This document shows, in pieces, positions 24,601 to 55,331 of a DNA stretch of 64,000 nucleotides. The notes beneath the pieces are model-generated. The model did no database searches and had not been told where the DNA came from. It was given only the letters and a program-made list of their open reading frames with translations. Position 1 is the stretch's first letter; each line of letters begins with the position of its first letter. Source of the stretch: an uncultured Eubacteriales bacterium. GTDB lineage: Bacteria > Bacillota > Clostridia > Oscillospirales > CAG-272. The translations under genes and the position numbers were made by a program. The stretch spans positions 6,426-70,425 of the forward strand of contig CABUHS010000003.1 in the NCBI GenBank assembly GCA_902491535.1, in the 5' to 3' direction.

Positions 24601-24879
24601 GGCTTTGATTCATCCAGCGGCGAGGATGAGGATTCTGCAACCGGTGCGGATAATGGAGAAACTGCGGTATCAGGAGAAAATATCACCCCGGAAAATATCG
24701 GGGTTTCCGATACTGAAGCTATTTCGGCGCCGGACGAAAATAAAGCATCTTCCGCGGATATTTCCGGAAATGAGGATATTTTCGATGCGTCGGGCGATAC
24801 GGCTGATGATCCTTTTGAATACGGAATAGGAAATGATATCATAGAAAGTATTTTTTCTGTACGTAAGGATGACGAATGA
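21604..24879 (+). CDS. P-type ATPase homologue lacking all catalytic motifs (intact ORF, predicted non-pumping), with an acidic ~170-aa C-terminal tail
   Basis: Cation-ATPase N-terminal domain (LTAEQIANHFGSDISRGLS) and colinear similarity to the genuine P-type ATPase at 44689-47331. TGES is TGEK, PEGL is absent, DKTGT is PYRSL, TGDN is TCDS and GDGVNDAP is ADRLGQLS. The start overlaps the upstream stop (ATGA). Confidence 0.85.
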   Translation: MRDSKWHELTAEQIANHFGSDISRGLSVSAAAQRLRQDGESRIYPENREKYTANIKHILTDLTVILLVFTAVISAAFGQSVSIPVIISLIVLNLAACVAAYLKAHSILKETGKRAEHSVKVVRDGHVMLINSSQTVCGDVIFLSAGDTVPADARIIQSEELTVLQTDVTGEKKPVRKRSGFAEGRSIGAAPEQQTNMLFASSVVMSGSGRAIICATSENTCIRKLGRASGDDLSYEKLRLFKFMRSYSSVWGLCMLVAVFVIAVLDFIFGSADRSLFDSFITALTLAVASMSSCYLAFTYIVVSSGILGLGKRRRGNSSGALVKNIGKLEAAKDITALIVPYRSLIASDSVKLVRVYAAGADKGVSDHGFKRSCVPLLRLAVISTGLYGGNRLVHNNLSGNNVYSDDEELIISYATNLGIYNLRLDRDFPMADHVSAGNRSRFDTTLYFDGGDFRAVSRGDAGRILASCSHYRDYSGVLRMNSEKRDELSRYVTAAAKKNCRVIAIASKKTQYTNLRRIVANQSDLVFEGFLVISEPLIEGAARNIAACREAGIRVLMTCDSRNETGIITARSLGIISDDSRIVSGEQISGMKPEIFRINIPLYDLYIGLSSSQLEMLISFLQADGSVVGIAADRLGQLSAMREGDVGFALQSSAVSPSGGTVRVPIVSGGSGEHSCPADAALMFYSDVVLYSPDRRGSGGFNGMVGTVKNSVQIYRNILRVSSYLLTVQIARLAIVLWSVISGNFVLTPVQVLFSGLIIDFAAVFTIAFQPPSTHVLKYRQDVDKKLKRPFFSNIRYVVFGLLWALALVFSPYILNAAGFVFADGELVSASFLGFMITQFFVMSEIKREHSIFDPNIRFSAASVLIVLLCVAFALVSIFVPPFGVLFGIKIIGSAAVSAMLIPPALMVIVLEIDKILRGYSRISKYLEKLVSKFGAKKRLDAKPNEVEINVTEKPETPATADSDTGLFESFDLDEFIASAIGLSDKQENNIGTDSVDGGFDSSSGEDEDSATGADNGETAVSGENITPENIGVSDTEAISAPDENKASSADISGNEDIFDASGDTADDPFEYGIGNDIIESIFSVRKDDE

Positions 24880-34113: not shown

Positions 34114-35358
34114 TTATTTGTTATTATCTGAAAACCTGTCCTGTCCGGATCTTTCGGTATTTCTGTAAATGCCTATAGGGGAGAAATCAGGAGCTTCAAG
34201 AATCAGGTATAAAATAAAACAACTAAGTCTATGTGCCGCAGAAATATTATCACGGCATGAAAGTAAAATATCGTAAACACATCCCGCACTTGAATGTGAA
34301 AGAAGGACAGAATCGATTTTATGCACAGAAAGACCAAGAAATTCCGCTGCGTGGAGAATTTCTCCGAGACGTGTTTTTTGACTGTCGCTCAGAGAGAATT
34401 CATAAAAGATCGGACCTTCTTTTGCTGCGGCGATTCGTCCGAGATTTTTACGGAGAAGCGCAAAAACCATACCGCTTTCCCGTAGTGTTACAGTTTGTGC
34501 TATTCTTAAATCGTATCTGAAAAGCAGTCTGCGCACTCCGCTGAGACGCCCGTCCGAAATATTTTCTATCGGCAGGATACAGTAAGCCGCGCTTCCGTTT
34601 TCGACCGCTTCGCATACAGATGCAAGATCATCGCACAGAATCCTGTCCGGAATGTCATCCTTACTGTCCGCTCTGCAAAGGTATTCCGAAAAGGCGCTGA
34701 ATGCTTCATCGGAATATGAATTCTGAAGATATGCTACAGATATGCCGTGTGCCGGCGATATTATAGCGCCGAGTAAACCTTCCGGCGTCAAAGATTCAAG
34801 AGCATGTGTACTCATTGATGAGCATAGCTCGCTGCAAAGCATGACGCGGTATATTATTACCGAAAAGTTCTGTGCGTCTGATATCATGCTTTCAAGCGGA
34901 TCTGCTGCTTCCGTATATATATGCGATACGTATGAACCGGAACTGAAAAGACAGTATTCGTTATATATTTGCCGCAGATCTTCTGCTGTAAGATATGTCG
35001 ATTCTGAGCCGCCATTTTCATTCTCATCGTCATAGGCTGTGGATTTGTTTGAAAATACGGTGCGCGGCGGTATTGAATTTACCGGACGGCTTCGGAGTTC
35101 AGCTGCTTGTGCAATTGCCGAGGCAAGCTCGCGGATATGCGCTGCAAGCCGTTCAGTTAAACCTTTTCCGATGCCCCGCAGTTCGTCAATGTTTTTACTG
35201 CATATCTTTATATTTTCTTCAATATTCGTTTCGGGACGACTGATATGCTGCCGGTCTGAGACGGCTGCCGGATATTCGCTTTTCGGTGAACTATCCGGCA
35301 GTGTTTCTTTCTTCGGCAAATCTCCGGACATTCGGTTTGAATATTCCGGTCTGTTCAT
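34114..35358 (-). CDS. Hypothetical protein with a partial prephenate-dehydratase-like region and an ACT-like C-terminus
   Basis: VAYLQNSYSDEAF and VCEAVENGSAAYCILPIENISDGRL resemble the PDT N-subdomain (VAYLGPxGTFS, AVxxGxxDYGVVPIENSxxG). The C-terminal ~100 aa look ACT-like. The start is trimmed to ATG 35358 (or 35331) to avoid overlap with htpG. Confidence 0.5.
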   Translation of the reverse strand: MNRPEYSNRMSGDLPKKETLPDSSPKSEYPAAVSDRQHISRPETNIEENIKICSKNIDELRGIGKGLTERLAAHIRELASAIAQAAELRSRPVNSIPPRTVFSNKSTAYDDENENGGSESTYLTAEDLRQIYNEYCLFSSGSYVSHIYTEAADPLESMISDAQNFSVIIYRVMLCSELCSSMSTHALESLTPEGLLGAIISPAHGISVAYLQNSYSDEAFSAFSEYLCRADSKDDIPDRILCDDLASVCEAVENGSAAYCILPIENISDGRLSGVRRLLFRYDLRIAQTVTLRESGMVFALLRKNLGRIAAAKEGPIFYEFSLSDSQKTRLGEILHAAEFLGLSVHKIDSVLLSHSSAGCVYDILLSCRDNISAAHRLSCFILYLILEAPDFSPIGIYRNTERSGQDRFSDNNK

Positions 35359-35359
35359 C

Positions 35360-37288
35360 TTATCGGTCAATGTTTTGCTCAAGCATAGAGAAGCTGTCGT
35401 AGAGGAAATTCTGCAATTCCTCGGCTGTAAGCTGTCTTTGCGCAATGAGCGCCAATGTATATATTTGCTTTGCCGTTTTTTCGGCATTTCCAGCGTCCTC
35501 GGTAATTATATCTCCGAGACGTTTTATAAGAGAGCTGTTAGAGTTCAGGATCAGAGTTGCGTCTGTCGGGAATGTGTTGTTCATATCGCCGCCGGACATG
35601 CGGTACATACGCATCATATCTTCCATTCTGCGCGACTGCTCTGATATATTAAGAATCGCCGGAACACGTTCGTCCTTAAGATTCTCAAATTTAACGGTGA
35701 GCTTTTCCTGACCGCTTATTTTGCGGAACAGCTCCTCAAGTTCTTTGCTCTCAAATTTTTCTCCGTCCCCTTTGAGCGCGGTTGCTATTTCCGCATCGAT
35801 ACGGACGAATTTTACATTTTTATCGTTTTCAATAATATTGATAAACTGTGTATCTATTACTTTATCGAGCAGTACGACTTCGATCTGCTGTGCCTTGAAC
35901 ATTGAAATGTACTGTGCCTGAGCAATTTTGTCCGCAGCGTAATATATTACGCCTTCGTGCTTTTCTTTTGCATTTTCAATATATTCATCTACAGTACGGA
36001 AGTTTCCGTCAGTCAGAGGAAGCAGGAGAGCAGATTTTACACGGTCGTAAAATTTGCGGTCGCGCAGACATGCATATTCGACGAAAAGTTTAATATCTTC
36101 CCACAGCTTTTCATAGTTTTCGCGGTCGGTATTAAACATGCCGCACAGCTTATCGCATACCTTTTTGACAATGTGCGCAGAAAGTTTTGATACATATGCG
36201 CTGTTCTGCAGATAGCTTCTCGATACATTTAGCGGCAGCTCAGGACAGTCGAGTACGCCCTTGAGCATAAGCATGTATTCAGGAATTACTTCCTTGATAT
36301 TGTCGGCTACAAATACCTGGTTATAATACAGCTTTACCTGACCTTCGAGATTGTCGAACTCATGATTGAGTCGCGGGAAATAGAGTATGCCCTTAAAATT
36401 GAGCGGATAATCAGCGTTGATGTGTATATGGAAGAGAGGCTCTTTCCAGTCGCGGAAAAGCTTGTTATAGAACTGTTTATAGTCGTCATCGCTGCACTCT
36501 GAAGGAAGCTTTTGCCACAGAGGGTGGGAATCGTTTATAGGCTCGGCTTTTTTCTCCCCGTTACATTCATCGCAGCCACATTCGTCATCGTGAGAATGTT
36601 CCTTTGTATGCTCTTTTTCTTTTTCAAGTTCTTCGGGAGTTTTGACTATATCAAGATATATGTCTACAGGCATAAAGGAACAGTACTTGTCAAGTATTTC
36701 TCTGATTTTGAATTCTTCAAGATATTCCTTTTCCTCGTCGGTGATATGCATAATAACATCGGTTCCGCGGGTTTCCTTATCTGACGGGAGTATCTCATAT
36801 TCCCCTGCATCTGTGCATACCCACTTTACCGCCGGAGCATCTGTATACGATTTCGTAACAACGTCGACCGTATTGCTGACCATAAACGAAGAATAGAAAC
36901 CGAGACCGAAATGACCGATTATACCGGGCGCGCCGCCTTCTGTATCCTCATATTTTGAAATGAAATCGAGAGCGCCGGACAGAGCGATCTGACAGATATA
37001 TCTTCTTACTTCGTCCTCGGACATACCGATACCGTTATCCGAAACGGTAAGGGTTCCCTCGTTTTTATCTACCTTAACAGTTATTCTGAAATCGCTGTCA
37101 TCTATATCATGGACCTCGCCGAGCGAGATAAGCCTTTTGAGTTTTGTAACGGCGTCCGACGCGTTTGATACGATTTCACGGAGAAAGATCTCTTTTTCGC
37201 TGTACAGCCATTTTTTTATTATCGGGAATATATGCTCGGTCTGAACCGAAATTCCGCCTTTATTTTCTTTTTTTATTTCTTCACTCAT
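35360..37288 (-). CDS. htpG: Molecular chaperone HtpG (Hsp90)
   Basis: GHKL N-terminal motifs EIFLREIVSNASDA, DNGIGM and GHFGLGFYS. Length 642 aa. Confidence 0.95.
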   Translation of the reverse strand: MSEEIKKENKGGISVQTEHIFPIIKKWLYSEKEIFLREIVSNASDAVTKLKRLISLGEVHDIDDSDFRITVKVDKNEGTLTVSDNGIGMSEDEVRRYICQIALSGALDFISKYEDTEGGAPGIIGHFGLGFYSSFMVSNTVDVVTKSYTDAPAVKWVCTDAGEYEILPSDKETRGTDVIMHITDEEKEYLEEFKIREILDKYCSFMPVDIYLDIVKTPEELEKEKEHTKEHSHDDECGCDECNGEKKAEPINDSHPLWQKLPSECSDDDYKQFYNKLFRDWKEPLFHIHINADYPLNFKGILYFPRLNHEFDNLEGQVKLYYNQVFVADNIKEVIPEYMLMLKGVLDCPELPLNVSRSYLQNSAYVSKLSAHIVKKVCDKLCGMFNTDRENYEKLWEDIKLFVEYACLRDRKFYDRVKSALLLPLTDGNFRTVDEYIENAKEKHEGVIYYAADKIAQAQYISMFKAQQIEVVLLDKVIDTQFINIIENDKNVKFVRIDAEIATALKGDGEKFESKELEELFRKISGQEKLTVKFENLKDERVPAILNISEQSRRMEDMMRMYRMSGGDMNNTFPTDATLILNSNSSLIKRLGDIITEDAGNAEKTAKQIYTLALIAQRQLTAEELQNFLYDSFSMLEQNIDR

Positions 37289-41338: not shown

Positions 41339-43048
41339 ATGGATATAACAGAACTTATCGGACGTGCCGTGTCGGGTGATAAACGTGCCGTATTCGGTCT
41401 GTACGATGCATATAAGAACAATATTTATTATTTGTGCAATAAGCTTGTCGGAAATAACGGAGATGCCGCTGCGGGGATGCTGCAATCTACCTTTATGCAT
41501 GTGTTCGGAAAGCTCGGACTTCTAAAAAATCCGGATACTTTCGGAGCATGGAGTTACACTACTGCGGCAAAGCGTTGCCGCTCGTATCTTGCCGGAACAG
41601 GATCTCCGCTTGACTTTTCTGCTGTTTCCGCAAAGCTTCCGGATGGTGCCGGAGATGCAGACAGATTTCCGTACAGTCTTCAGTCGATAGGCTCAGAAAT
41701 TTTGTCGGACGAACAGGCATGCTCGGCGATCGAGGAAGCAGTGGACATGCTTCCGGCACCCGAACGTTTTGCTGTGCTTATGTTCTTTTTCTGCCGTCTT
41801 GATCCAGAGCAGATAGCGAGAAACATGCAGACTTCTCCGGAAAATATCCGTAAATGCATTATTTCCGGCGCAGGTATTATAGGAAATGAGGTCAAGAAAA
41901 GAAGCGCGGAGCTTCCTTCTCTTTCAAAATACCGCGGTGCGGCGGAACTCGGCGATATTCTCAAAGCAAGAGCGGATACTATTGGCGTTCCAGACCGTAT
42001 ATCGGATACGATCGTTGCGACCGGGATGTCTCTTGTCTCATCGTTTGCCGAATCATCTCAGGAAAATCAGGATTATACTTACGAGGATAATTCGGCATCC
42101 GGCAAAGGTTCGGGAAACAGAGCTGCCGGCGTGATTATAATGGTAATTTTAATTCTTCTTATCGGTGCAGTGGCTGTGTTTGCCGTTAAATTTTTACCCG
42201 GTATAGTGGGCGGCGATAGCCCCGTGAATACCGGTGATGTCGGCAGCACATCTGCCGTAGAGTCGGTTTCCGATGAACCCCGGACGTCGGGAGTTCCGGC
42301 TACGGATTCAGCTGCCGTAACCGATCCGGTCACCGATGCGGCTACCGAACCGGTAACTGATGCAGTAACAGTGCCTCCGGAACGTCAGGATCCTCCCCCT
42401 GTTCAGAGTGATTACACTTTTGTCCGCGGAACAGACGGAAGTGTTACCATAACCAAATATAACGGCAAAGATGAACAGGTTACTATACCTTCAGCGGTTG
42501 ACGGCGCACCGGTTCGTGCTATCGGAGAGAGTGCATTCAGAGAAAACAAGACCGTTAAAAAGGTTGTTATCCCCGACGGCGTTCAGTATATCGGAACATA
42601 TGCGTTCCTCAATTGCAGTGCGCTCGAGGATGTGACCGTTCCCTCAAGCGTAAAGAGTGTCGGACTTACTGTTCTCGGCGGAACAAAATGGCTTGAGAGC
42701 CATACTGAAGAGTTTGTCATTATAGGAGACGGCGTACTGATAAAGATAAACTCTAAAAGCAGAGATATAACCGTTCCGAGCGGAGTGAAATATATTTCGA
42801 ATGCATTTTACTATATAGGTACGGTAGAAAACATTACTCTTCCGTCATCGGTATGGGGAATAGGCGAGCTTGCATTTACCGTTTGTATAAAACTGAATAC
42901 GATAAATATTCCTGCGTCTGTTACTTCAATTCATAATGAGGCTATATATCAATGCGATGTGCTGTCTGCAATCAATGCACCGAGCGGCAGCACCGCTGCA
43001 AAATGGTGTACGGAACACGGCTACGGAGCTGTTTTAAAGTCTCAGTAA
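41339..43048 (+). CDS. ECF-like sigma-70 domains (regions 2 and 4) fused via a TM helix and P/T/D-rich linker to an extracytoplasmic BspA-type leucine-rich-repeat domain
   Basis: The N-terminus resembles ECF sigma factors (LIGRAVSGDKRAVFGLYDAYKNNIYYLC, DAAAGMLQSTFMHVF, FGAWSYTTAAKRCRSYL; region 4 is LPAPERFAVLMFFFCRLDPEQIARNMQTSPENIRKCI). TM segment AAGVIIMVILILLIGAVAVFAV. LRR units such as IGESAFRENKTVKKVVIPDGVQYIGTYAFLNCSALEDVTVPSSV. Confidence 0.8.
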   Translation: MDITELIGRAVSGDKRAVFGLYDAYKNNIYYLCNKLVGNNGDAAAGMLQSTFMHVFGKLGLLKNPDTFGAWSYTTAAKRCRSYLAGTGSPLDFSAVSAKLPDGAGDADRFPYSLQSIGSEILSDEQACSAIEEAVDMLPAPERFAVLMFFFCRLDPEQIARNMQTSPENIRKCIISGAGIIGNEVKKRSAELPSLSKYRGAAELGDILKARADTIGVPDRISDTIVATGMSLVSSFAESSQENQDYTYEDNSASGKGSGNRAAGVIIMVILILLIGAVAVFAVKFLPGIVGGDSPVNTGDVGSTSAVESVSDEPRTSGVPATDSAAVTDPVTDAATEPVTDAVTVPPERQDPPPVQSDYTFVRGTDGSVTITKYNGKDEQVTIPSAVDGAPVRAIGESAFRENKTVKKVVIPDGVQYIGTYAFLNCSALEDVTVPSSVKSVGLTVLGGTKWLESHTEEFVIIGDGVLIKINSKSRDITVPSGVKYISNAFYYIGTVENITLPSSVWGIGELAFTVCIKLNTINIPASVTSIHNEAIYQCDVLSAINAPSGSTAAKWCTEHGYGAVLKSQ

Positions 43049-44665: not shown

Positions 44666-44688
44666 AACATATGAAAAGGAGAGGGAAA

Positions 44689-47331
44689 ATGAAAGAGTAT
44701 CTGTCAACGGCTGACGAGGTAATAAAAAATCTCGGAACCTCTGAGCAGGGCCTCGGGGAATCAGAGGCTGAAAAACGTCTCGTAAAACACGGAGCTAATA
44801 AGCTCGCCGAAGGTAAAAAGGAATCTTTACTTCATAAGTTTTTAGGGGAATTTGCCGATCCGATGATAATTATACTTATCGTTGCGGCGGTAATATCCGG
44901 AATAACATCGGTATATTCTCATGAATCATTTGCAGACGTTATAATTATTATGGCTGTCGTTATAATAAACGCCGTACTCGGCGTTGTGCAGGAGAGTAAG
45001 GCAGAGGCGGCTATAGAGGCGCTTCAGCAGATAGCAGCCGCCACGTCAAAGGTGATACGCGGAGGAAAACGAATTACGGTAAAAAGTGAGGAACTTGTTC
45101 CGGGTGATATCATATTGCTTGAAGCCGGAGACTCAGTCCCTGCTGACGCCCGGATAATTGAAAGTGCAAGCCTGCGTATAGAGGAGGCGGCGCTTACCGG
45201 TGAGTCGGTTCCTGCGAGTAAGACAGAGAGCGTATTGAGTGCTGACGGAAACGGTGATGTTTCGCTCGGAGACCGTAATAATATGGCGTATATGGGCTGT
45301 ACTGTAGTTTATGGACGCGGAACAGCAGTGGTTACTGCTACCGGAATGGATACCGAAATGGGTAAAATAGCAGATGCGCTTTCAAATGCAAAGGAAGAGC
45401 AGACACCTCTTCAGAAAAAGCTTTCGCAGCTCAGCAAGATACTGAGTGTTCTTGTTGTCGGAATCTGTGCGGTTATATTTGCGGTTGATGTAATAAGAAG
45501 TTATCCGAATATCAGCGGAGAAGGCATGCTTGACACCTTTATGGTTGCAGTCAGCCTTGCGGTTGCCGCCATTCCCGAAGGCCTTGCGGCTGTTGTAACT
45601 ATCGTTCTGTCTATCGGCGTAACAAATATGTCAAAGCGTAACGCGATAATAAGAAAACTTACTTCTGTTGAAACTCTCGGATGTACACAGGTAATATGCT
45701 CTGATAAGACCGGAACGCTTACCCAAAATAAAATGACGGTTGTTGAACATTTTTCAGATGACGACGGACGGACCGCGGTAGCAATGGCAGTATGTTCAGA
45801 TGCAAAGCTCGGCGACGGAGGAATTGCGGTCGGAGAACCGACCGAATGTGCGCTTGTAAACGATGCGCATGCGCTTGGTCTTACAGATAAGGTAAACGGA
45901 TATGTTCGTATAGGCGAAGCCCCGTTTGATTCTATGAGAAAGATGATGTCGGTTGTCTGTCGGGGCAGCGACGGTGAGATCGTACAGTTTACAAAGGGCG
46001 CGCCCGATGAGATAATTTCGAGATGTTCGCATGCGCTTATCGGCGGAAATATTGTAGTTATGACAGAGAAGATCCGTGCGGATATTCTTGCTGCGAATAA
46101 ATCGATGGCTGACCGTGCGCTGCGGGTACTGTGTGCGGCGGAGCGTCGGTTTGATCTTCCTCCTGAATCTTTTGATGCAGATGATCTTGAAAAAGAGCTT
46201 TGTTATATCGGACTTTCCGGTATGATAGATCCTGTGCGCGAAGAAGCTAAGGCTGCTGTTGAGGAATGCCGCGGAGCAGGAATGCGCGTTGTAATGATAA
46301 CCGGAGATAATAAAGATACGGCGGTTGCGATCGCAAGCCAGCTCGGTATACTTGAAAACGGTACTGAGGCTATAACCGGATCCATGCTGAACGGAATCAG
46401 TGACGAGCAGCTTGCTAAGGATATAACAAAATATTCTGTATATGCGCGCGTTCAGCCTGAGCATAAGGTCCGCATTGTCAATGCATGGAAGTCCCGCGGA
46501 TATATTACCGCTATGACCGGAGACGGAGTTAATGATGCACCGTCCATAAAGAGTGCTGATATCGGTGTGGGCATGGGAATTACCGGAACGGACGTTACTA
46601 AAAATGTTGCCGGTATGGTACTTGCCGACGATAATTTTGCTACGATCGTTTCGGCGGTCGAAGAAGGACGCCGCATTTATGACAATATCCGTAAGTCAAT
46701 ACAGTTCCTCCTGTCTTCGAACCTTGCAGAAGTTCTCTCGATATTTTTTGCAACAATGCTCGGATTTACAATACTTAAACCGGTGCATCTTCTCTGGATA
46801 AACCTTATAACCGACTGTCTGCCCGCTCTTGCTCTCGGTATGGAGAAGAGCGAAAAGGATATAATGCGGCATGAGCCGAGAAAATCAAACGACGGTATTT
46901 TTGCCGGGGGTATGGGAATAGATGTTGCATTTCAGGGTATACTCATCACGGTAATCACGCTTGTATCGTATTTTATCGGTCATTTTATAGAATCAGGCCG
47001 TTTTGAGGCGGTTAACAGTGCCGACGGAATGACAATGGCATTTTTGACACTTTCGCTTGTCGAGATATTCCATTCCTTCAATATGCGTTCGCGCCGCGGA
47101 TCTGTTTTCGGAATGCATAGTCAGAATAAATGGCTTTGGATGTCTATGGCAGCTTCGCTGATTCTTACGACAGCAGTTATTTATATTCCCCCGCTTCGGT
47201 CTGCATTTGGATTTGAATTGATTTCGCTTGCCGAATATCTGGTGGCAATTGCTCTTGCAGTTTTGATAATACCGATAATAGAGGTTGTGAAGCTTATTCA
47301 GCGAAAGGTATGCAAAGAAAAAAAGGATTGA
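44689..47331 (+). CDS. P-type cation-transporting ATPase (P2-type, Ca2+/Mn2+-ATPase-like)
   Basis: All canonical motifs are present: TGES, PEGL, ICSDKTGTLT, KGAPD, MITGDN, GDGVNDAP. AAGGAGAGGG precedes ATG 44689; the ORF-track start at 44671 lies inside the RBS. Confidence 0.9.
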   Translation: MKEYLSTADEVIKNLGTSEQGLGESEAEKRLVKHGANKLAEGKKESLLHKFLGEFADPMIIILIVAAVISGITSVYSHESFADVIIIMAVVIINAVLGVVQESKAEAAIEALQQIAAATSKVIRGGKRITVKSEELVPGDIILLEAGDSVPADARIIESASLRIEEAALTGESVPASKTESVLSADGNGDVSLGDRNNMAYMGCTVVYGRGTAVVTATGMDTEMGKIADALSNAKEEQTPLQKKLSQLSKILSVLVVGICAVIFAVDVIRSYPNISGEGMLDTFMVAVSLAVAAIPEGLAAVVTIVLSIGVTNMSKRNAIIRKLTSVETLGCTQVICSDKTGTLTQNKMTVVEHFSDDDGRTAVAMAVCSDAKLGDGGIAVGEPTECALVNDAHALGLTDKVNGYVRIGEAPFDSMRKMMSVVCRGSDGEIVQFTKGAPDEIISRCSHALIGGNIVVMTEKIRADILAANKSMADRALRVLCAAERRFDLPPESFDADDLEKELCYIGLSGMIDPVREEAKAAVEECRGAGMRVVMITGDNKDTAVAIASQLGILENGTEAITGSMLNGISDEQLAKDITKYSVYARVQPEHKVRIVNAWKSRGYITAMTGDGVNDAPSIKSADIGVGMGITGTDVTKNVAGMVLADDNFATIVSAVEEGRRIYDNIRKSIQFLLSSNLAEVLSIFFATMLGFTILKPVHLLWINLITDCLPALALGMEKSEKDIMRHEPRKSNDGIFAGGMGIDVAFQGILITVITLVSYFIGHFIESGRFEAVNSADGMTMAFLTLSLVEIFHSFNMRSRRGSVFGMHSQNKWLWMSMAASLILTTAVIYIPPLRSAFGFELISLAEYLVAIALAVLIIPIIEVVKLIQRKVCKEKKD

Positions 47332-49210: not shown

Positions 49211-49927
49211 TTAATGACAATTTACTTGTTCTAAAATATCAAACATAGAAAAAATCCATAGTATATTTCCGAACAGTTGATAACTTGAATGGCTGTTTGC
49301 AGAGTATATAACGTCTATTACATCATCGCAATGTATATTATCCGAGGTATATGTATGGTTGTCAATATCTTCTCTAGAATATGCATCACGAGGACGGTAT
49401 TCATAATCTATAGCAATTAAATTATTATCTATTATATTGTCATATTGAAATTTAAGTTCAATGTAATCGCAGTCTTTGGATGTATTATAATCCGGATCAT
49501 ATTTTACAAAATCTAAATATCCTACGTCATTAGTATTATACTCAACTTCATCGTTGTTTATTTTAAAATATGTATATTGCTTTCCGGCTTCAAATCCATA
49601 TATGGATGTAACTACCCCTGAACTGTTGACGAATATGATAAAAGATATATCCGAGAAATTTGTAGTCAGTGTAATTTTATTGCCGTCTGCAGAGTAGTCA
49701 AAAAAATACATTATTCCATTTTTTCCTAAACTTTTTATTACCTGATATTTTGTAATTGCAGAATTATTGTCATCTTCCTTGACCATTGTATCTTGTGTTG
49801 TTTCGGATGACAATATATCATGCTTTGTTTCAGCTTCGAGTTTTGAAGGAATTACTGAACATCCGGTCAGCGTGAATATTAGTATGGCGGAGATTATGAA
49901 ACATATTGTTTTATATTTTTTATCCAT
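49211..49927 (-). CDS. Hypothetical lipoprotein (AT-rich gene)
   Basis: MDKKYKTICFIISAILIFTLTGC has a signal peptide with lipobox LTG-C. N/D/Y-rich mature part with no recognisable family. Markedly lower GC than its neighbours. Confidence 0.65.
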   Translation of the reverse strand: MDKKYKTICFIISAILIFTLTGCSVIPSKLEAETKHDILSSETTQDTMVKEDDNNSAITKYQVIKSLGKNGIMYFFDYSADGNKITLTTNFSDISFIIFVNSSGVVTSIYGFEAGKQYTYFKINNDEVEYNTNDVGYLDFVKYDPDYNTSKDCDYIELKFQYDNIIDNNLIAIDYEYRPRDAYSREDIDNHTYTSDNIHCDDVIDVIYSANSHSSYQLFGNILWIFSMFDILEQVNCH

Positions 49928-49951
49928 AAAATTTACCTCTATATTTATTTT

Positions 49952-49985
49952 AATATCTTTGCACTTATATAAGTGCAAAGATATT
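49952..49985. promoter_or_regulatory. Perfect 34-bp palindrome in the divergent lipoprotein/XRE intergenic region (candidate operator)
   Basis: aatatctttgcacttat|ataagtgcaaagatatt has 17-nt arms that are exact reverse complements. It lies 25 nt from the lipoprotein ATG and 74 nt upstream of the XRE ATG. Confidence 0.6.
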
Positions 49986-50058
49986 TTATCATGAAAATAT
50001 AATATTGTCAATAGATTTGTTCTTGTATAATCACAGTTTAATTGATAAAGGGAAAATT

Positions 50059-50295
50059 ATGGATTCTAAAATAGAAAAGATTATAGGCAATAATATACGT
50101 AGGCTGAGAGAAAAAGTCGGATTAACACAAGAAATGTTATCTATAAAAATGCAAATTAACGGATGTGATATAACAAGAAGTGCTATTGCTAAAATTGAGG
50201 TAGGACAACGTCATATATATCCGGACGAAATAATACTCATAAAAACTATATTAAATACATCATATGAGGATATTTTTGAAATAAAGAATATGTAA
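50059..50295 (+). CDS. XRE-family helix-turn-helix transcriptional regulator (78 aa)
   Basis: IGNNIRRLREKVGLTQEMLSIKMQINGCDITRSAIAKIEVGQR is a classic Cro/C1 HTH. ATG 50059 is chosen over the ORF-track start at 50005. Confidence 0.8.
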   Translation: MDSKIEKIIGNNIRRLREKVGLTQEMLSIKMQINGCDITRSAIAKIEVGQRHIYPDEIILIKTILNTSYEDIFEIKNM

Positions 50296-50445: not shown

Positions 50446-53400
50446 TTATTCTGTTATCTTAAAACGGTACTGTATTACCGAACGAATTTCAGTGTTCTCA
50501 TTTTCAGCGGGCTTTGTTTCCGACCAGTCGCTCCACTCTGTATATGAGTAACAGGTATAGGCTACAGGACGTGTGGAACTGCGGTATTGAACGGATGTTT
50601 CGACCTCCGATGCAGATGTGGATTCTGCAGGTGTATCTGACCAGTCGCTCCATTCGCCGTAAGGATTTGCAGGACGGCTGCGGTATTCGGTGCGCTGTCT
50701 GAATTCTATCTTGTCCGTATCCGGCAGGGAATCCGACCAGTCGCTCCAATCGCTCCAGTCATTGTATTCATATCCTTCGATTATTTTTGTTTCGTAGGTG
50801 CGGTATATGTACCGTGTTCTTGTTTCGACCGATACGGTGTCAGACGCGATTATTTCTGCGGTTCCCCATTCGCTCCACGGAGTAATACTGCGTGTCCTGT
50901 ATACCGTTTTTGTTTCAACACGCTCAGTGTCAGATTCAATTATCGGGACGCTTTGCCACTGACCGAATTCGCTCCACTCGCCATAAATCGTTTTGCTGTC
51001 GTCTACGGTAAGACCGTCTGTCGGATATGTATTTTGAACAATTTCATTCTTTGTACGGTATGACCATAGTGTGCGTTCTTCTGTCTGAGCGGTATTTCCG
51101 TCAGGAGCGGTCTCCGACCATTCGCTCCACTGGCTTGTTCCGTTGCTTACGGTTATTGTGACTACTGTCTTTTCATTGACTATTGTTCCGGATGCGATGC
51201 TCTGAGATATAACTGTTCCTTTCGGAGCTTCGCTTACCGCATATACCGTGTGATAAGAAAGCCCTGCTGCAGTAATTGCCGCGGCTGCATCGGATTCGCT
51301 CATTGTGACAGTTCCGGGCGTGACCGATTTCCCGTTGGGAACAGGGATATTTACTGTATAAGAGGCTGTGAAATCTCCGTCGCTTGAACGTGCCGTTATT
51401 ACGGCGGAACCGGGAGCTATTGCAGTTATTTGACCGTATGAGTTTACCGTTACAACGGACGGATTGCTCGAGGAGAAGGTGACATATTTGTTTGTAACAT
51501 TGCTCGGTGTGAGCCACGGTGAATGTGATTCGCTTGCGCCTACTGATAGGGTGGTTTCATTTATGCGGAAACCGATTCCGGCAACTTTTACAACATTGTC
51601 TCGAATTTCGACTTTGCATGATGCGGAATGCTCCCCGTCAGCTGAGAATACGGTTATTGTTGCACTTCCGTCTGCTATTGCGCTCACTTGTCCTGTCTGA
51701 TCGACCGTTACTGCTGACGGATTGTCGCTTGTCCAGAAAACTTCCTTTTCGGTAGCATTTTCAGGATATATTGAAAGCTTCATAGTCTCAGATTCTCCCG
51801 ACTTAAGTGCGAAAGAATCTTCACCGATAGACATACTTTCTATCGGAATAAATCCGTCGGGCATTACTCCGCTGCTGACTGTAATGTAGATCGGAACATC
51901 AGATACAATATCGGATCCTTCAGCGATGCTTTGATATGCTACTGAGCCTTCCGGAACGGAGGCTGAATAAGCATGGAGAACAATTATGTTTTCGAAGCCG
52001 AGCGTGGCAAGTCTCTCGGACGCATCATTTTCAGTAAGTCCTACCATGCTTGGCATATTGTTCGGCGCTTTCCCGAGACTGAGCGTAAGCTCTACGGTAT
52101 CGTTGGCACCGAATGTGATTCCCGCCTCGGGAAACTGACCTATTACCGTACCTTCTGCGGCTGTATAGCTGTAATTTCCGAATATTACCGGATTATTTGA
52201 GTATCCGGATTTGCGGAGCAGAACCAGTGCGTCATCCTCGCTTTTTCCGGAAAGATCCGGCATTTCTATTCCGTATGTACCGGTTGGTGATGATTCGGCA
52301 TCGGTGACGGCAGAGGTATCGGGCGAAGTGTCAGGTGACGGCTCACTCCCTGCATTTCCGTTGCATTTTTGCATGCAGACTATAAGTACTACAAGTATTG
52401 CAATGAGCGCAACGGTAAATAAGCAGATTTTTAATATGGGAATATTGCCGAAACGGTCGGCTTCATTCTCCGGTTCTCCGGAGTAATCTGAACCGTCTGA
52501 AATGTCGGCGTTTTCCGTTGCCTGATCTTCGCTTTGTGCAGAAGAATCGCCACCAGCAGCGTGTATTTCGTTTTCGTTGATTCCGGTATCCGTTTCACCG
52601 GGATCAATTTCTTTTTTCTTTCTTTTTTTCTTTGGCTTTATTTCTGTCAGTTCGTCTCCGTTATGACTATTTTGACCGCGCAGAGTGTCGGTATCAGACG
52701 GTTGAATAAAATTACCGTCTTCGTCGAAGTAGCCGTTTTCTGAATAAGTTTTTTCGTATGGATCGAGTTGAATAAGTTTGTCTGACGTAGCTATATTATT
52801 ATTTTCGTCTCCGTCGTTTACGGTAAATACAACGGACTTCTCCGTTTGTTCGGCGGGAGCAATTTCAGAGGAAGTATCCCCGTAGTCATAGACTATATTT
52901 CCGAACGTTTCATTCCTGTTGCTGTCTCCGGTTTTTGTAAGTACTTCGTTTTCTGCGAAAACAAAGTGTCCGCTCTGAGATTTTTCGTGAGTTTCGGGCA
53001 TTGTATCTGAGGGTTTTTGTATATTTAGTGTAATATTGGCAGCTGCCGCATATTCTCGGATCGCTTCACTCATATCCTGCGGGGAGGAATATCTGTCATC
53101 CGGTGAGTTCGCGCATGCCTTCAGAATGACGGAAGAAAGTCTGCTGTCAGCTTTGCACGGAGCCGGGAGAGATTTTCCGTCAATACGGCTGACAATTGCG
53201 TCGTCAGCTTCTTTTTTTGTAACGAGTCCCTTTTCGGATATAACAAACGGCAGACGGTTGTTATTGAATTTGAAATACATGGTGAGTCCGATCGAATATA
53301 TATCCGACCGAATGTCGGCTTCTTCACCGCGCGCAAGTTCGGGTGCAATAAAACGAAGCAGCCGGCTGTCGTCAGGATTTAAAAGACGGCTTGTAAGCTG

Positions 53401-53955
53401 AGGCTCAAACATAGGATTTCCGAGTAAACACCGTCCGTCTTTATTAACATATACATTTTCGAGCTGAACATTGTTGTGGCGCATATCAAGACTGCTGTAT
53501 TCTGATATTGCATCGCACATATCGCAGGCGAGCGAGAGAAGTGTTGCGCGATTGATCTTGTGTCCCGAGTAATATTCACTGAACGTCGGATAGTATGCCG
53601 ACAGAATATATATCTTTGCACCGCCTTCGGTTCTTACCGATTTAACATCAAGTATTTCCGGAAGATGTTCGCAACCGGAATTTATCAGTTTTTCGGCATC
53701 CGCAATGCATTTGTCTGCATATTCGTCGAATCGCTGTGATATCTGACTGTCAGTGAATCCGTTTTGGCGGAGAAGTTCTGCTTCGCCGTCATAGGCGGGG
53801 ATATTCAATATTCTTACAAGTCCGTCCGGCTCGCCGCTTTCGTTACTGCATGCCGTCCATATCTCCTGATATTTGCTCTGCGATACAGGCATTATCAGAT
53901 CCCAGCCTTCAATTGGGCAGAAGGGTGCGTGGCTTATATTAGTTATATTATCCAT
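50446..53955 (-). CDS. Membrane protein: degenerate Hanks-type kinase (pseudokinase) domain, TM, 2 PASTA, 2 Big_2, 1 PASTA, six WSxWS-type repeats
   Basis: The kinase fold is retained (FIAPELARG, SDIYSIGLTMY, SPDDRY) but the G-loop, VAIK Lys, HRD Asp and DFG Asp are all substituted. TM segment ICLFTVALIAILVVLIVCM. PASTA units (MPDLSGKSEDDALVLLRKSGY..., MPSMVGLTENDASERLATLGF...). Big_2 units (FWTSDNPSAVTVDQTGQVSAIADGSATITV, FSSSNPSVVTVNSYGQITAIAPGSAVITA). Confidence 0.85.
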   Translation of the reverse strand: MDNITNISHAPFCPIEGWDLIMPVSQSKYQEIWTACSNESGEPDGLVRILNIPAYDGEAELLRQNGFTDSQISQRFDEYADKCIADAEKLINSGCEHLPEILDVKSVRTEGGAKIYILSAYYPTFSEYYSGHKINRATLLSLACDMCDAISEYSSLDMRHNNVQLENVYVNKDGRCLLGNPMFEPQLTSRLLNPDDSRLLRFIAPELARGEEADIRSDIYSIGLTMYFKFNNNRLPFVISEKGLVTKKEADDAIVSRIDGKSLPAPCKADSRLSSVILKACANSPDDRYSSPQDMSEAIREYAAAANITLNIQKPSDTMPETHEKSQSGHFVFAENEVLTKTGDSNRNETFGNIVYDYGDTSSEIAPAEQTEKSVVFTVNDGDENNNIATSDKLIQLDPYEKTYSENGYFDEDGNFIQPSDTDTLRGQNSHNGDELTEIKPKKKRKKKEIDPGETDTGINENEIHAAGGDSSAQSEDQATENADISDGSDYSGEPENEADRFGNIPILKICLFTVALIAILVVLIVCMQKCNGNAGSEPSPDTSPDTSAVTDAESSPTGTYGIEMPDLSGKSEDDALVLLRKSGYSNNPVIFGNYSYTAAEGTVIGQFPEAGITFGANDTVELTLSLGKAPNNMPSMVGLTENDASERLATLGFENIIVLHAYSASVPEGSVAYQSIAEGSDIVSDVPIYITVSSGVMPDGFIPIESMSIGEDSFALKSGESETMKLSIYPENATEKEVFWTSDNPSAVTVDQTGQVSAIADGSATITVFSADGEHSASCKVEIRDNVVKVAGIGFRINETTLSVGASESHSPWLTPSNVTNKYVTFSSSNPSVVTVNSYGQITAIAPGSAVITARSSDGDFTASYTVNIPVPNGKSVTPGTVTMSESDAAAAITAAGLSYHTVYAVSEAPKGTVISQSIASGTIVNEKTVVTITVSNGTSQWSEWSETAPDGNTAQTEERTLWSYRTKNEIVQNTYPTDGLTVDDSKTIYGEWSEFGQWQSVPIIESDTERVETKTVYRTRSITPWSEWGTAEIIASDTVSVETRTRYIYRTYETKIIEGYEYNDWSDWSDWSDSLPDTDKIEFRQRTEYRSRPANPYGEWSDWSDTPAESTSASEVETSVQYRSSTRPVAYTCYSYTEWSDWSETKPAENENTEIRSVIQYRFKITE
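50449..51132 (-). repeat. Six degenerate ~30-aa coding repeats (W-S-x-W-S ... V-E-T ... Y-R) at the C-terminus of the pseudokinase protein
   Basis: The units are QWSEWSE...LWSYRTK; GEWSEFGQWQS...VETKTVYRTR; PWSEWGT...VETRTRYIYR; DWSDWSDWSD...FRQRTEYRSR; GEWSDWSD...VETSVQYRSS; TEWSDWSE...IRSVIQYRFK. On the + strand they appear as recurring ga(c/a)ca(g/t)tcgctcca. Confidence 0.8.
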
Positions 53956-54132
53956 TTGCGTTACCCTCGTACAAATTTCAATAATCTATAGTTAATTATA
54001 ACAAATATTTTGTCGAATTGCAAGTAGTATTTACGTAAATTTTAAGAGTTTGACATAAGTCTATTGTAAAAAATTAAGAAATACATTATAATATATAAAC
54101 ATATATACTGAGAAGGTGTGTGAAGCAGGTTT

Positions 54133-54747
54133 ATGGTCGTTGTCGGACTTACCGGAGGAAGCGGTGCAGGTAAGGGATATGTGTGCAGAATATTTTCGGA
54201 ATACGGAATACTGTCTGTCGATGCGGACGAGGTATACCGCATCGTATCGTCGCGCGGAACTCCGTGTCTTGCCGAACTAAGTGATTATTTCGGGCAGGGA
54301 ATCCTTACTGCTGACGGTGAGCTTGACCGGCGCGCTCTTGCTGATATTGTATTTAAGCGCGGCGCAGAGGATAAGCTTGCATCTCTTAACAGAATTGCAC
54401 ATAAATATGTTATAGAGTATTGCGAGCGGTGGATCGCTGAGCGTGAAAGTCTCGGAGATTTTGCGGTGATTATCGATGCGCCGCAGCTCTTTGAAAGCGG
54501 GCTTGATAAACGCTGCGATCTTGTCGTATCTGTTGTAGCCGACCGCGAGTGCAGGATAGAACGAATTACGGAACGTGACGGAATATCAAAAGAGCGTGCC
54601 GAAAAACGGATAGATTCTCAGTATGATGACGATTTCTTTGCCGCCAATTCGGATTATGTGGTGGAAAGCGGAAACGGAAGCGACGTTCGGTTGGCAGTAG
54701 CCGCTATAGTAGAGAAAATAAAGCTTATGGAAAGAGGTAAAGTGTGA
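54133..54747 (+). CDS. coaE: Dephospho-CoA kinase
   Basis: P-loop VGLTGGSGAGKG, length about 200 aa, typical DAPQLFESGL motif. Confidence 0.9.
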   Translation: MVVVGLTGGSGAGKGYVCRIFSEYGILSVDADEVYRIVSSRGTPCLAELSDYFGQGILTADGELDRRALADIVFKRGAEDKLASLNRIAHKYVIEYCERWIAERESLGDFAVIIDAPQLFESGLDKRCDLVVSVVADRECRIERITERDGISKERAEKRIDSQYDDDFFAANSDYVVESGNGSDVRLAVAAIVEKIKLMERGKV

Positions 54748-55331
54748 CTGAAAAAATTCCGAAAGGCATAACGCGCAGAAAAATACTTGCCGTAATAGTC
54801 ATTGTCCTTGCTGCCGCGGCTGTGATAAATATTGCGCTTAAGTTTTCCGGCTTTTACAGACGTGTGACACATCCGGTTCTTTATCAGGAATATATAGAGC
54901 TTTATTCGGACAAATACAGTGTTCCTCCGGAGATAATCTGTGCTGTGATCAACACCGAAAGTTCGTTTGACAGCGAGGCTGAGTCTCACGCCGGAGCGAT
55001 GGGACTCATGCAGATAACAAAAGAGACCTTCTGGTGGCTTCTTTCAAAATCGGGTGAATCTATTCCCGACGAAAAGCTTTTCGATCCGCAGGTGAATATA
55101 CGTTACGGAACGTATTTTCTGTCGATTCTGTATGATGAATTCGGCAGCTGGGATACCGCATTTGCCGCGTATAATGCCGGCCGGTCGAGAGTGATAGGAT
55201 GGCTCGGCGATCCCGATGTGTCGGAGGACGGTAAGCTTGTAAATATTCCGATAGAAGAAACGAGAGAATATGTGAAGCGGGTAAACAGCGGTATAAAAAT
55301 ATACCGTGAAATATATGAAGAAATTTATTGA
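54744..55331 (+). CDS. Lytic transglycosylase (SLT domain), membrane-anchored
   Basis: N-terminal TM segment. Catalytic Glu motif INTESSF, plus GLMQIT and AYNAG motifs. The GTG start overlaps the coaE stop (GTGTGA). Confidence 0.85.
   Translation: MTEKIPKGITRRKILAVIVIVLAAAAVINIALKFSGFYRRVTHPVLYQEYIELYSDKYSVPPEIICAVINTESSFDSEAESHAGAMGLMQITKETFWWLLSKSGESIPDEKLFDPQVNIRYGTYFLSILYDEFGSWDTAFAAYNAGRSRVIGWLGDPDVSEDGKLVNIPIEETREYVKRVNSGIKIYREIYEEIY

Follow-up and report, generated by a model that had tools for sequence, protein, structure and literature searches.

What does a PASTA receptor do once the kinase domain that it carries inside the cell has lost its chemistry, and is such a gene kept? Kinases with PASTA ectodomains are central regulators in Gram-positive bacteria, where they govern wall synthesis, division and tolerance of beta-lactams, and there is still debate over how occupancy of the ectodomain gives rise to an output inside the cell. 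The question is raised by a gene of an uncultured Eubacteriales bacterium (contig CABUHS010000003.1 of assembly GCA_902491535.1), which lies at 50446..53955 on the minus strand of a 64-kb stretch, hereafter the window, whose positions are used throughout; all features of the gene given below lie on that same strand. Our analysis shows its product to be a type-I-like bitopic membrane protein, with a Hanks-type kinase fold inside and an ectodomain of PASTA, Big_2 and Trp-rich repeat modules outside. The kinase fold is a maintained pseudokinase, among the best-conserved parts of the protein, and not a product of decay.

We mapped the catalytic columns of the cytoplasmic domain (amino acids 15-305; 53041..53913) by four independent routes: a phmmer search of PDB sequences (best match S. 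aureus Stk1, 4eqm, E 1.3e-7), a MAFFT alignment with five active kinases, phmmer against 200 collected proteins, and an hhalign comparison of the family profile with one built from 80 active relatives (315 aligned columns at probability 100 and E 1.7e-78). All four concur on the residue assignments, and losses were scored by comparing 13 family members with 140 relatives that keep K, HRD and DFG. The Gly-rich loop, IGxGSYGxVY in active kinases, is degenerate (VSQSKYQEIW, amino acids 24-33; 53857..53886) and reads V-S25-Q-S27-K-Y-Q30-E-I-W, with S25, S27 and Q30 at the glycine positions; G25 and G30, conserved in more than 90% of the active relatives, are gone from 13 of the 13 members. Strand beta3 has V-R48-I in place of AIK: Arg48 (53812..53814) replaces the VAIK lysine in all 13, and the alanine before it (A46) has become the bulkier L, I or M. 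At the canonical helix-C Glu column (E86), nine members have D, three A and one E, while a family-specific Glu88, two residues off, is invariant. The catalytic loop, HRDIKPEN in active kinases, survives as the remnant HNNVQLEN (amino acids 160-167; 53455..53478), in which the HRD Asp is N in nine members and A in four, the Lys is Q in all 13, and the Pro is Leu. The DFG equivalent is N180-P181-M182 (53410..53418), LGDFG having become L-G-N180-P-M, with the Asp replaced by N in 12 of the 13 and by C in the remaining one (P0018).

The original prediction, made from the letters alone, had already called the glycine-free loop, the Arg in VAIK, and the Asn and Gln in the catalytic loop, and these calls stand; it was also right that the DFG Asp is lost, although its register (GNP) was off by one, the true equivalent being NPM. 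Altogether, the residues that are more than 90% conserved in the active relatives and lost in the family comprise G25, G30, A46, K48, E86, R161, D162, K164, P165, K177, D180, F181, G182, S195, G198 and T199. As far as alignment can tell, the family lacks essentially every such residue contacting ATP, metal or phospho-acceptor. The prediction's statement that every catalytic residue is gone holds for the triad, the Gly-rich loop and the catalytic-loop Lys, and is a slight overstatement in that His160 and Asn167, together with Glu166, are invariant in the family. By the sequence definition of a pseudokinase, namely the lack of at least one of the VAIK Lys, HRD Asp and DFG Asp, every member qualifies three times over; likewise, the hallmarks of a competent kinase (a Gly-rich loop, a beta3-Lys/helix-C-Glu salt bridge, HRDxKxxN and the DFG Asp) are all missing.

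The fold has fared differently from the chemistry. The APE motif, the helix-F Asp (SDIYSxG) and the DRY Arg are kept, as had been proposed, with P205, E206, D218 and R288 invariant across both the family and the aligned kinases. The Pfam PK_Tyr_Ser-Thr profile matches amino acids 131-289 above its gathering score (5.6e-8); the Pfam Pkinase profile reaches 19.9 bits on the domain, under its cut-off, and the profile alignments put no Lys, Asp and Asp at the VAIK, HRD and DFG positions. An AlphaFold2 model of amino acids 1-320 is bilobal (38-sequence alignment; predicted local distance difference test score, pLDDT, 90.7; predicted template-modelling score, pTM, 0.89), and Foldseek pairs it best in the PDB with kinase domains of M. 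tuberculosis PknB (E 1e-13, target-normalised TM-score 0.72-0.77, 17% identity), with Src and BTK kinase domains also among the top matches. Kinases were part of the alignment behind this model, which therefore is no evidence separate from the sequences; the hhalign profile-profile result stands by itself. With a bilobal fold and the C-lobe landmarks in place, the domain belongs to the Hanks-type protein kinase superfamily.

Is the loss a recent accident or an old and settled state? A full-length search recovered 12 clusters of like architecture (P0012-P0023), ranging from 95% down to 35% identity, and all 12 have Arg at beta3, Gln for the catalytic-loop Lys and no Gly-rich loop, with no member retaining intact motifs. 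The HRD position reads HNN, HSN or HGA, the last in the branch of P0020-P0023, and the DFG position reads NP(M/I/V/L), NLR or CHM. A word-indexed search with the kinase domain alone gave one partial orthologue and distant kinases, and it was the full-length and exhaustive searches that found the family. In exhaustive phmmer against 1.84 billion representatives, there were only four family clusters at 50% identity (E 1e-95 to 1e-181), followed by a score gap and then by active kinases. A scan of 185,579 species genomes yielded six loci, and each lies in a metagenome-assembled genome of an uncultured member of the Clostridia, Clostridiales or Eubacteriales; human-gut collections supplied several of these genomes. 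One 90% cluster has 430 member sequences. The gene is thus recurrent in metagenomes yet phylogenetically narrow, and its limitation to a few uncultured gut species makes direct genetics hard.

Ratios of nonsynonymous to synonymous substitution rates (dN/dS), computed by the Nei-Gojobori method against three orthologues with unsaturated dS, are 0.147 (dS 0.06), 0.099 (dS 0.68) and 0.109 (dS 0.83) for the pseudokinase domain, as compared with about 0.3 for the linker that follows it and 0.04-0.2 for the ectodomain modules, among which Big_2 and the Trp-rich repeats are lowest (0.04-0.10). All 305 residues of the pseudokinase domain are gapless in each orthologue compared, and in distant orthologues it is 53-59% identical as against 41-51% for PASTA domains 1 and 2 and the Trp-rich repeats. 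About 85 of its positions are invariant, including the activation segment; they are concentrated on that segment and on the face of helices F and G. The open reading frame is unbroken at all orthologous loci. The loss of catalysis is old: it goes back to before six or more species of uncultured gut Clostridia diverged, and strong purifying selection has followed it; the original prediction's view of a maintained rather than a decaying domain is borne out.

From where was this domain drawn? Among 5,429 proteins collected by the exhaustive search at E<=1e-10, the top non-family matches are active kinases, with scores of 120-250 bits and colinear over amino acids 16-300, which share the signature IGxGSYG, AAIKVIsIP, HRDIKPEN, KLGDFGI, YMAPEV, DIYSLG and NRLPF. 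The Stk1/PknB-type PASTA kinases (HRDIKPQN, KVxDFGI, YxSPEQA) reach 35-50 bits only, and hhalign scores 429 against the clostridial AIKVIsIP/YMAPEV subfamily versus 163 against the Stk1 type. The PknB/PrkC affinity originally proposed survives as regards the Hanks-type alignment and the top PDB match, and gives way as regards nearest kinship, which lies with the AIKVIsIP subfamily; because of this difference in profile scores, a paralogue of PrkC, as had been suggested, is not established. Similarity of the PASTA domains, used as a test of lineage, did not discriminate between Stk1-type kinases and those of the same subfamily.

Active members of the subfamily carry varied ectodomains (LRR_5, LRR_4, TPR, Big_3), and a few have modules of the pseudokinase type: P0195 joins an active kinase to a transmembrane helix, four PASTA domains and Trp-rich repeats; P0158 is an active kinase of the subfamily with four PASTA domains; and P0125, also active, combines a Zn-ribbon, a kinase domain, a transmembrane helix and Trp-rich repeats. 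These findings trace the domain to a clostridial kinase subfamily in which active members can bear PASTA and Trp-rich-repeat ectodomains. The active relatives are about 48% identical among themselves, and their identity to the pseudokinase family, which lies at the end of a long branch, is only about 28%. The simplest history would be that an active kinase of this subfamily, of the PASTA/Trp-repeat type, lost catalysis, diverged rapidly and then became fixed as a new constraint took hold.

The same subfamily includes many proteins with two to four tandem kinase domains (P0056-P0062, P0080, P0099, P0103 and P0141), in which one domain keeps HRD and DFG and the others are degenerate (e.g., IRQDIEPKN/LETAAA, IHGAIHPDL, LGNFG). 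Bacterial tandem kinase-pseudokinase architectures of this kind are common in the parent subfamily, such that the pairing of a live with a dead domain recurs there; our analysis thereby points to an active kinase subfamily with recurring live/dead pairing.

What, then, has been conserved in place of catalysis? Residues that are invariant in the family and rare in active relatives fall into four groups: S25, W33, R48, Q164, L165 and N180 in the former active site; Y121-Y122-P123-T124 at the hinge, where active relatives have L-L-T-P; P194, D196, R198, L199, L200, R201 and F202 in the activation segment; and T225, F228, K229 and F230 at the end of helix F. Within the activation segment through APE (amino acids 183-206; 53338..53409), the stretch NPDDSRLLRFIAPE is nearly invariant across the family, the GT motif of active relatives has become R198-L199, and Ser195, more than 90% conserved in their activation loop, is Asp or Glu in 11 of the 13 members. 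The acidic substitution at position 195, together with the loss of GT, would suit a fixed conformation that is independent of phosphorylation. A further conserved element lies outside the domain, in the rapidly diverging acidic linker: the motif GYFDEDGNF (amino acids 408-416; 52708..52734), with the consensus GYFDE(D/S/A/H)G(N/S)F, is found among 230 collected proteins in family members only, with a near variant, GYFDENGNY, in P0013. Such invariant patches and a linear motif are what might be expected of a domain that works through protein-protein contacts.

The remainder of the protein is laid out as follows. The uninterrupted open reading frame of 1169 amino acids is preceded, 8 nt 5' of its start, by a GAGGG ribosome-binding site, and its full-length orthologues (P0012-P0023) share the order of pseudokinase, disordered linker, transmembrane helix, two PASTA domains, two Big_2 domains, a third PASTA domain and Trp-rich repeats. 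The cytoplasmic linker (amino acids 306-504; 52444..53040) is acidic, of low complexity, disordered and fast-evolving, and leads into a single transmembrane helix (amino acids 505-531; 52363..52443; hydropathy maximum 3.3). Outside, in an ectodomain of about 640 amino acids, Pfam recognizes PASTA domains 1 and 2 (amino acids 563-697; 51865..52269; PF03793, three stretches, 1e-35), two Big_2 immunoglobulin-like domains (amino acids 705-872; 51340..51843; PF02368, two stretches, 1e-29) and PASTA domain 3 (amino acids 877-940; 51136..51327), the last of which is missing in the most distant orthologues, P0020-P0023. The NCBIfam profile PknB_PASTA_kin (NF033483) makes a partial match to the transmembrane and PASTA region alone (amino acids 443-728), with 149.8 bits against a cut-off of 450. 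Two other profile matches were discarded: PF26918, listed for P0012, is not the family of the C-terminal repeats and is a faint Ig_Eae match in the Big_2 region; and the NCBIfam JUQZ_fam_ocin match falls in Big_2 domain 2, below its cut-off. The 177 bp that separate the gene from the divergent coaE contain, about 40 nt upstream of the ATG, a promoter-like site, TTGCAA-17-TATAAT with a TG (extended -10) element (53995..54023); this is a consensus match only, and as promoter-like matches in the region occur in the number expected by chance, its position alone is suggestive.

The C-terminal tail of 228 amino acids (amino acids 942-1169; 50449..51132) consists of six Trp-rich repeats of the form (E/D)WS(D/E)WS, a spacer of 10 to 18 residues, and VE(T/S)xT.YR(S/T)R. 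It matches nothing in Pfam even at E<=10, and AlphaFold2 predicts for it an all-beta, long beta-hairpin array (pLDDT 93.6; pTM 0.59, as expected for an elongated object), for which Foldseek returned nothing significant in the PDB, only trivial long-hairpin matches (best E 0.011, TM-score <0.15). The original prediction of an intact protein with three PASTA domains, two Big_2 domains and a novel repeat module stands. A word-indexed search with the module gave 10 matches, all unannotated; the same repeat occurs in the ectodomains of the active kinases P0125 and P0195 and in small non-kinase Zn-ribbon proteins, and its carriers include P0224. The W...W and R.R pattern presumably recalls Trp-Arg ladders, and the repeat is hereby flagged as an unannotated Trp-rich surface module.

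The gene resides in a housekeeping region of a spore-former, with YtfJ, SpoIIIAH, FtsK, RuvABC, RecG, RecO, Era and HtpG encoded in the window. As had been noted, the usual PrkC context is missing, with no PP2C, rsgA or rlmN in the window or in the orthologous loci. Divergently transcribed from the pseudokinase gene, on the plus strand at 54133..55331, are coaE (54133..54747) and a gene for an SLT lytic transglycosylase (54744..55331). The block of coaE, SLT, a small Zn-ribbon protein and an ABC-F protein is the sole neighborhood kept at every orthologue examined (L001, L002, L003, L004, L005, L006 and L013), and a lytic-transglycosylase neighbor is compatible with a role at the cell wall. In three of these loci, all of them distant, coaE and SLT form one fused gene of 526 or 440 amino acids (L004 2449..4029, L005 1556..3136 and L006 611..1933). 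The other flank is variable: the window and L003 have a gene for a PLD-type, cardiolipin-synthase-like protein, L004 has a GyrI-like gene, and L004 and L006 have genes for ZapA, a U32 peptidase, Maf and a class B penicillin-binding protein. In the window, two genes (49211..50295) intervene between the pseudokinase gene and the PLD-type gene, the first coding for a lipoprotein-like protein of 238 amino acids with the signal MDKKYKTICFIISAILIFTLTGC and no Pfam family, and the second, small and convergent, for an XRE-type helix-turn-helix protein; L001, the orthologous locus at 95% identity, has both genes and L003 and L014 have neither, which marks the pair as a lineage-specific insertion.

Three other loci of the window deserve mention in their own right. 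At 21604..24879 (plus strand), an intact homologue of P-type ATPases (1091 amino acids; Pfam E1-E2_ATPase and Cation_ATPase_N/C), whose start overlaps the stop of a ClpB/ClpC-like AAA+ gene (19184..21607), has lost all its catalytic motifs: relative to the canonical paralogue at 44671..47331, DKTGT has become YRSLI, TGES TGEK, TGDN TCDS, and GDGVNDAPS ADRLGQLSA. It has no HAD/Hydrolase domain match, bears a long acidic C-terminal tail, and is apparently a second pseudoenzyme in the window. The gene at 41339..43048 (plus strand; 569 amino acids), conserved in L001 (20908..22617) and L003 (20421..22139), combines N-terminal sigma-70 regions 2 and 4 with a predicted transmembrane helix around amino acid 257 and C-terminal BspA-type LRR_5 repeats, and looks like a sigma factor that is tethered to the membrane and joined to an extracytoplasmic LRR sensor. 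Lastly, a 457-amino-acid frame at 34114..35487 (minus strand), which matches no Pfam family at E<=1e-7 and is predicted to have no transmembrane helix, overlaps the annotated start of the HtpG/Hsp90 frame (35360..37288) by about 128 nt, which could be explained either by an htpG start further downstream or by a shorter reading frame at 34114..35487.

Returning to the pseudokinase, we consider the best explanation, and a reasonably probable one, to be that this maintained dead-kinase membrane protein is a non-catalytic wall-sensing receptor or scaffold. Its ectodomain of PASTA, Big_2 and Trp-rich repeats might bind peptidoglycan or another wall component, or place the protein at sites of wall synthesis, and this occupancy or localization would be relayed through the transmembrane helix to the pseudokinase domain. 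The latter, along with the linker motif, would recruit or allosterically modulate cytoplasmic partners by protein-protein interaction, with the invariant face of the former substrate-binding site and activation segment and the GYFDExGNF motif as the likely contact surfaces. The most plausible partner would be an active Hanks kinase, engaged by N-lobe or activation-segment pairing; the protein would then most likely serve as an allosteric partner, a docking platform or a trans-phosphorylated substrate of such a kinase acting on wall or division targets.

Several observations weigh against this interpretation. PASTA domains do not always bind peptidoglycan, and the sensing of it proposed here would follow from domain homology. 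The occlusion of the nucleotide pocket is suggested by the substitutions only, and the invariance of R48, H160, E166 and N167, with the isosteric Asn standing for both lost Asp residues in most members, might allow nucleotide binding or an atypical activity. No second kinase, including a canonical PASTA kinase, is encoded within the window. Finally, the synteny with coaE and SLT is weak evidence, as it may merely reflect the shared ancestry of close genomes.

A more specific version of the receptor model would make the protein a bacterial counterpart of HER3, i.e., a peptidoglycan-sensing PASTA receptor whose dead kinase exerts allosteric control over an active Hanks kinase or is its phospho-docking platform, so that PASTA signaling would be kinase-independent, with the Trp hairpins constituting a new wall-binding fold that lacks a solved structural relative; this we put forward tentatively, as one possible form that the model could take. 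Less likely still, in our judgement, is that the protein is a structural or adhesive surface protein in which the ectodomain is functional and the cytoplasmic pseudokinase is a mere folded anchor or localization domain without signaling. The size of the ectodomain, its immunoglobulin-like and repeat modules, which are typical of surface proteins, the particularly low dN/dS of Big_2 and the Trp-rich repeats, and the occurrence of these repeats in small non-kinase proteins all accord with an anchor. However, the pseudokinase domain is constrained like the ectodomain and gapless, with its invariant residues gathered on the activation segment and on the face of helices F and G, and a linear motif is kept within an otherwise freely drifting linker; a mere anchor would not need such constraint.

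We deem it improbable that the domain is an atypical active enzyme, which would bind nucleotide and catalyze phosphotransfer or another reaction (e.g., AMPylation) through a rearranged active site. WNK, CASK and SelO are precedents for activity of this kind, and Arg48, His160, Glu166, Asn167 and the family-specific Glu88 are invariant. The former active-site positions (S25, W33, R48, Q164, L165 and N180) are likewise invariant rather than drifting, and the swaps of Asp are to Asn. Families in which the same Lys is replaced by Arg, DYD and ActPs2, have been suggested to be ligand binders (PMC12599244; bioRxiv 10.1101/2025.01.12.632604). On the other hand, the triad, all three glycines of the Gly-rich loop and the catalytic-loop Lys have all been lost together, the VAIK Ala of the adenine pocket is replaced by L, I or M, the branch with HGA lacks even a polar side chain at the HRD position, and no compensating conserved Lys or Asp is seen elsewhere in the N-lobe. 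There remain the readings of an active PASTA kinase in recent, strain-specific decay and of an active kinase that was misaligned. The sub-threshold Pkinase score is what a decaying domain would give, but both are refuted, and scarcely credible, in the face of substitutions shared by six species-level genomes and by orthologues whose overall identity falls as low as 35%, a dN/dS of about 0.1, intact reading frames at all loci and the agreement of four alignment methods on the columns.

How does this receptor-like pseudokinase compare with known systems? In topology, it is of a kind with the PASTA Hanks kinases (M. tuberculosis PknB, B. subtilis PrkC, S. aureus Stk1/PknB and S. pneumoniae StkP; NF033483): it shares with them an N-terminal cytoplasmic kinase fold, a disordered juxtamembrane linker, one transmembrane helix and extracellular PASTA domains, PknB is its best structural match, and its transmembrane and PASTA region matches NF033483. 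Unlike them, it is devoid of the catalytic and ATP-binding residues and of the PP2C/rsgA/rlmN context, and has Big_2 domains and Trp-rich repeats. As to membership in the Stk1/PknB family itself, PASTA repeats do follow the transmembrane helix, whereas the match to NF033483 is not full-length and the kinase domain is not of the PknB/PrkC clade. Its closest sequence relatives are the AIKVIsIP...HRDIKPEN...LGDFG...YMAPEV...NRLPF kinases (P0195, P0158, P0125 and P0186), with which it shares the insertion 'IP..E..LR' between beta3 and helix C and, in the case of P0195, the layout of kinase, transmembrane helix, PASTA domains and Trp-rich repeats; these differ in keeping GxGxxG, K, HRD and DFG, and none of them has GYFDExGNF.

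The eukaryotic receptor pseudokinases, such as HER3/ErbB3 and plant BIR2, join a ligand-binding ectodomain and a single transmembrane helix to a dead kinase that depends on an active partner for its effect. With these, the clostridial family would share the concept only, there being no evolutionary link beyond the kinase superfamily.

Among bacterial proteins, the nearest functional model may be CD2148 of C. difficile, an atypical membrane Hanks protein, possibly a pseudokinase, in which the catalytic Asp and Asn are replaced and which does not autophosphorylate; it is phosphorylated by PrkC in vitro and modulates the PrkC-dependent phosphorylation of the hydrolase CwlA (PMC9674922; PMC8262956). 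Like the protein described here, it is clostridial, membrane-anchored and of the Hanks fold, and lacks the catalytic-loop Asp; in contrast to it, CD2148 has no PASTA domains, no catalytic-loop Asn and no APE/SPE motif (PMC9674922). M. tuberculosis MviN and EssB/YukC are other bacterial membrane pseudokinases, with roles as scaffolds (PMC12599244).

Pseudokinases are a recognized class in bacteria, though one that has received little study. A 2025 atlas and review recognize seven conserved bacterial pseudokinase families, ActPs1-3 (to which M. tuberculosis MviN belongs), GLW, CP1, DYD and DLHK, along with the individual cases of EssB, SidJ and SelO, and place PASTA domains in the catalytic KAPD family (PMC12599244; bioRxiv 10.1101/2025.01.12.632604). 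The family described here resembles these in its degraded triad, and many of them associate with the membrane and have a transmembrane helix C-terminal to the domain; DYD and ActPs2 also share the Lys-to-Arg substitution. Compared by their descriptions only, none is clostridial with PASTA domains: the ActPs families are actinobacterial, and GLW, CP1 and DLHK come from Proteobacteria or Cyanobacteria. HRD and DFG are kept in DYD, GLW has GLW in place of HRD, as against HNN, HSN or HGA in the clostridial family, and CP1 and DLHK, which carry COG3899 or helicase domains, are cytosolic. Full-text literature searches, whose coverage was incomplete, returned no description of a pseudokinase with PASTA domains. 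Thus, the fold, the concept and the ectodomain are each known, while the combination and the clostridial lineage were not found described. A conserved kinase-dead PASTA receptor, if that is what this protein is, would show that the PASTA architecture can have an output independent of phosphotransfer, and would provide a natural separation-of-function variant against which models of dimerization, scaffolding and decoy could be tested. Set beside the published families, it extends the short list of conserved bacterial pseudokinases to the Clostridia of the human gut.

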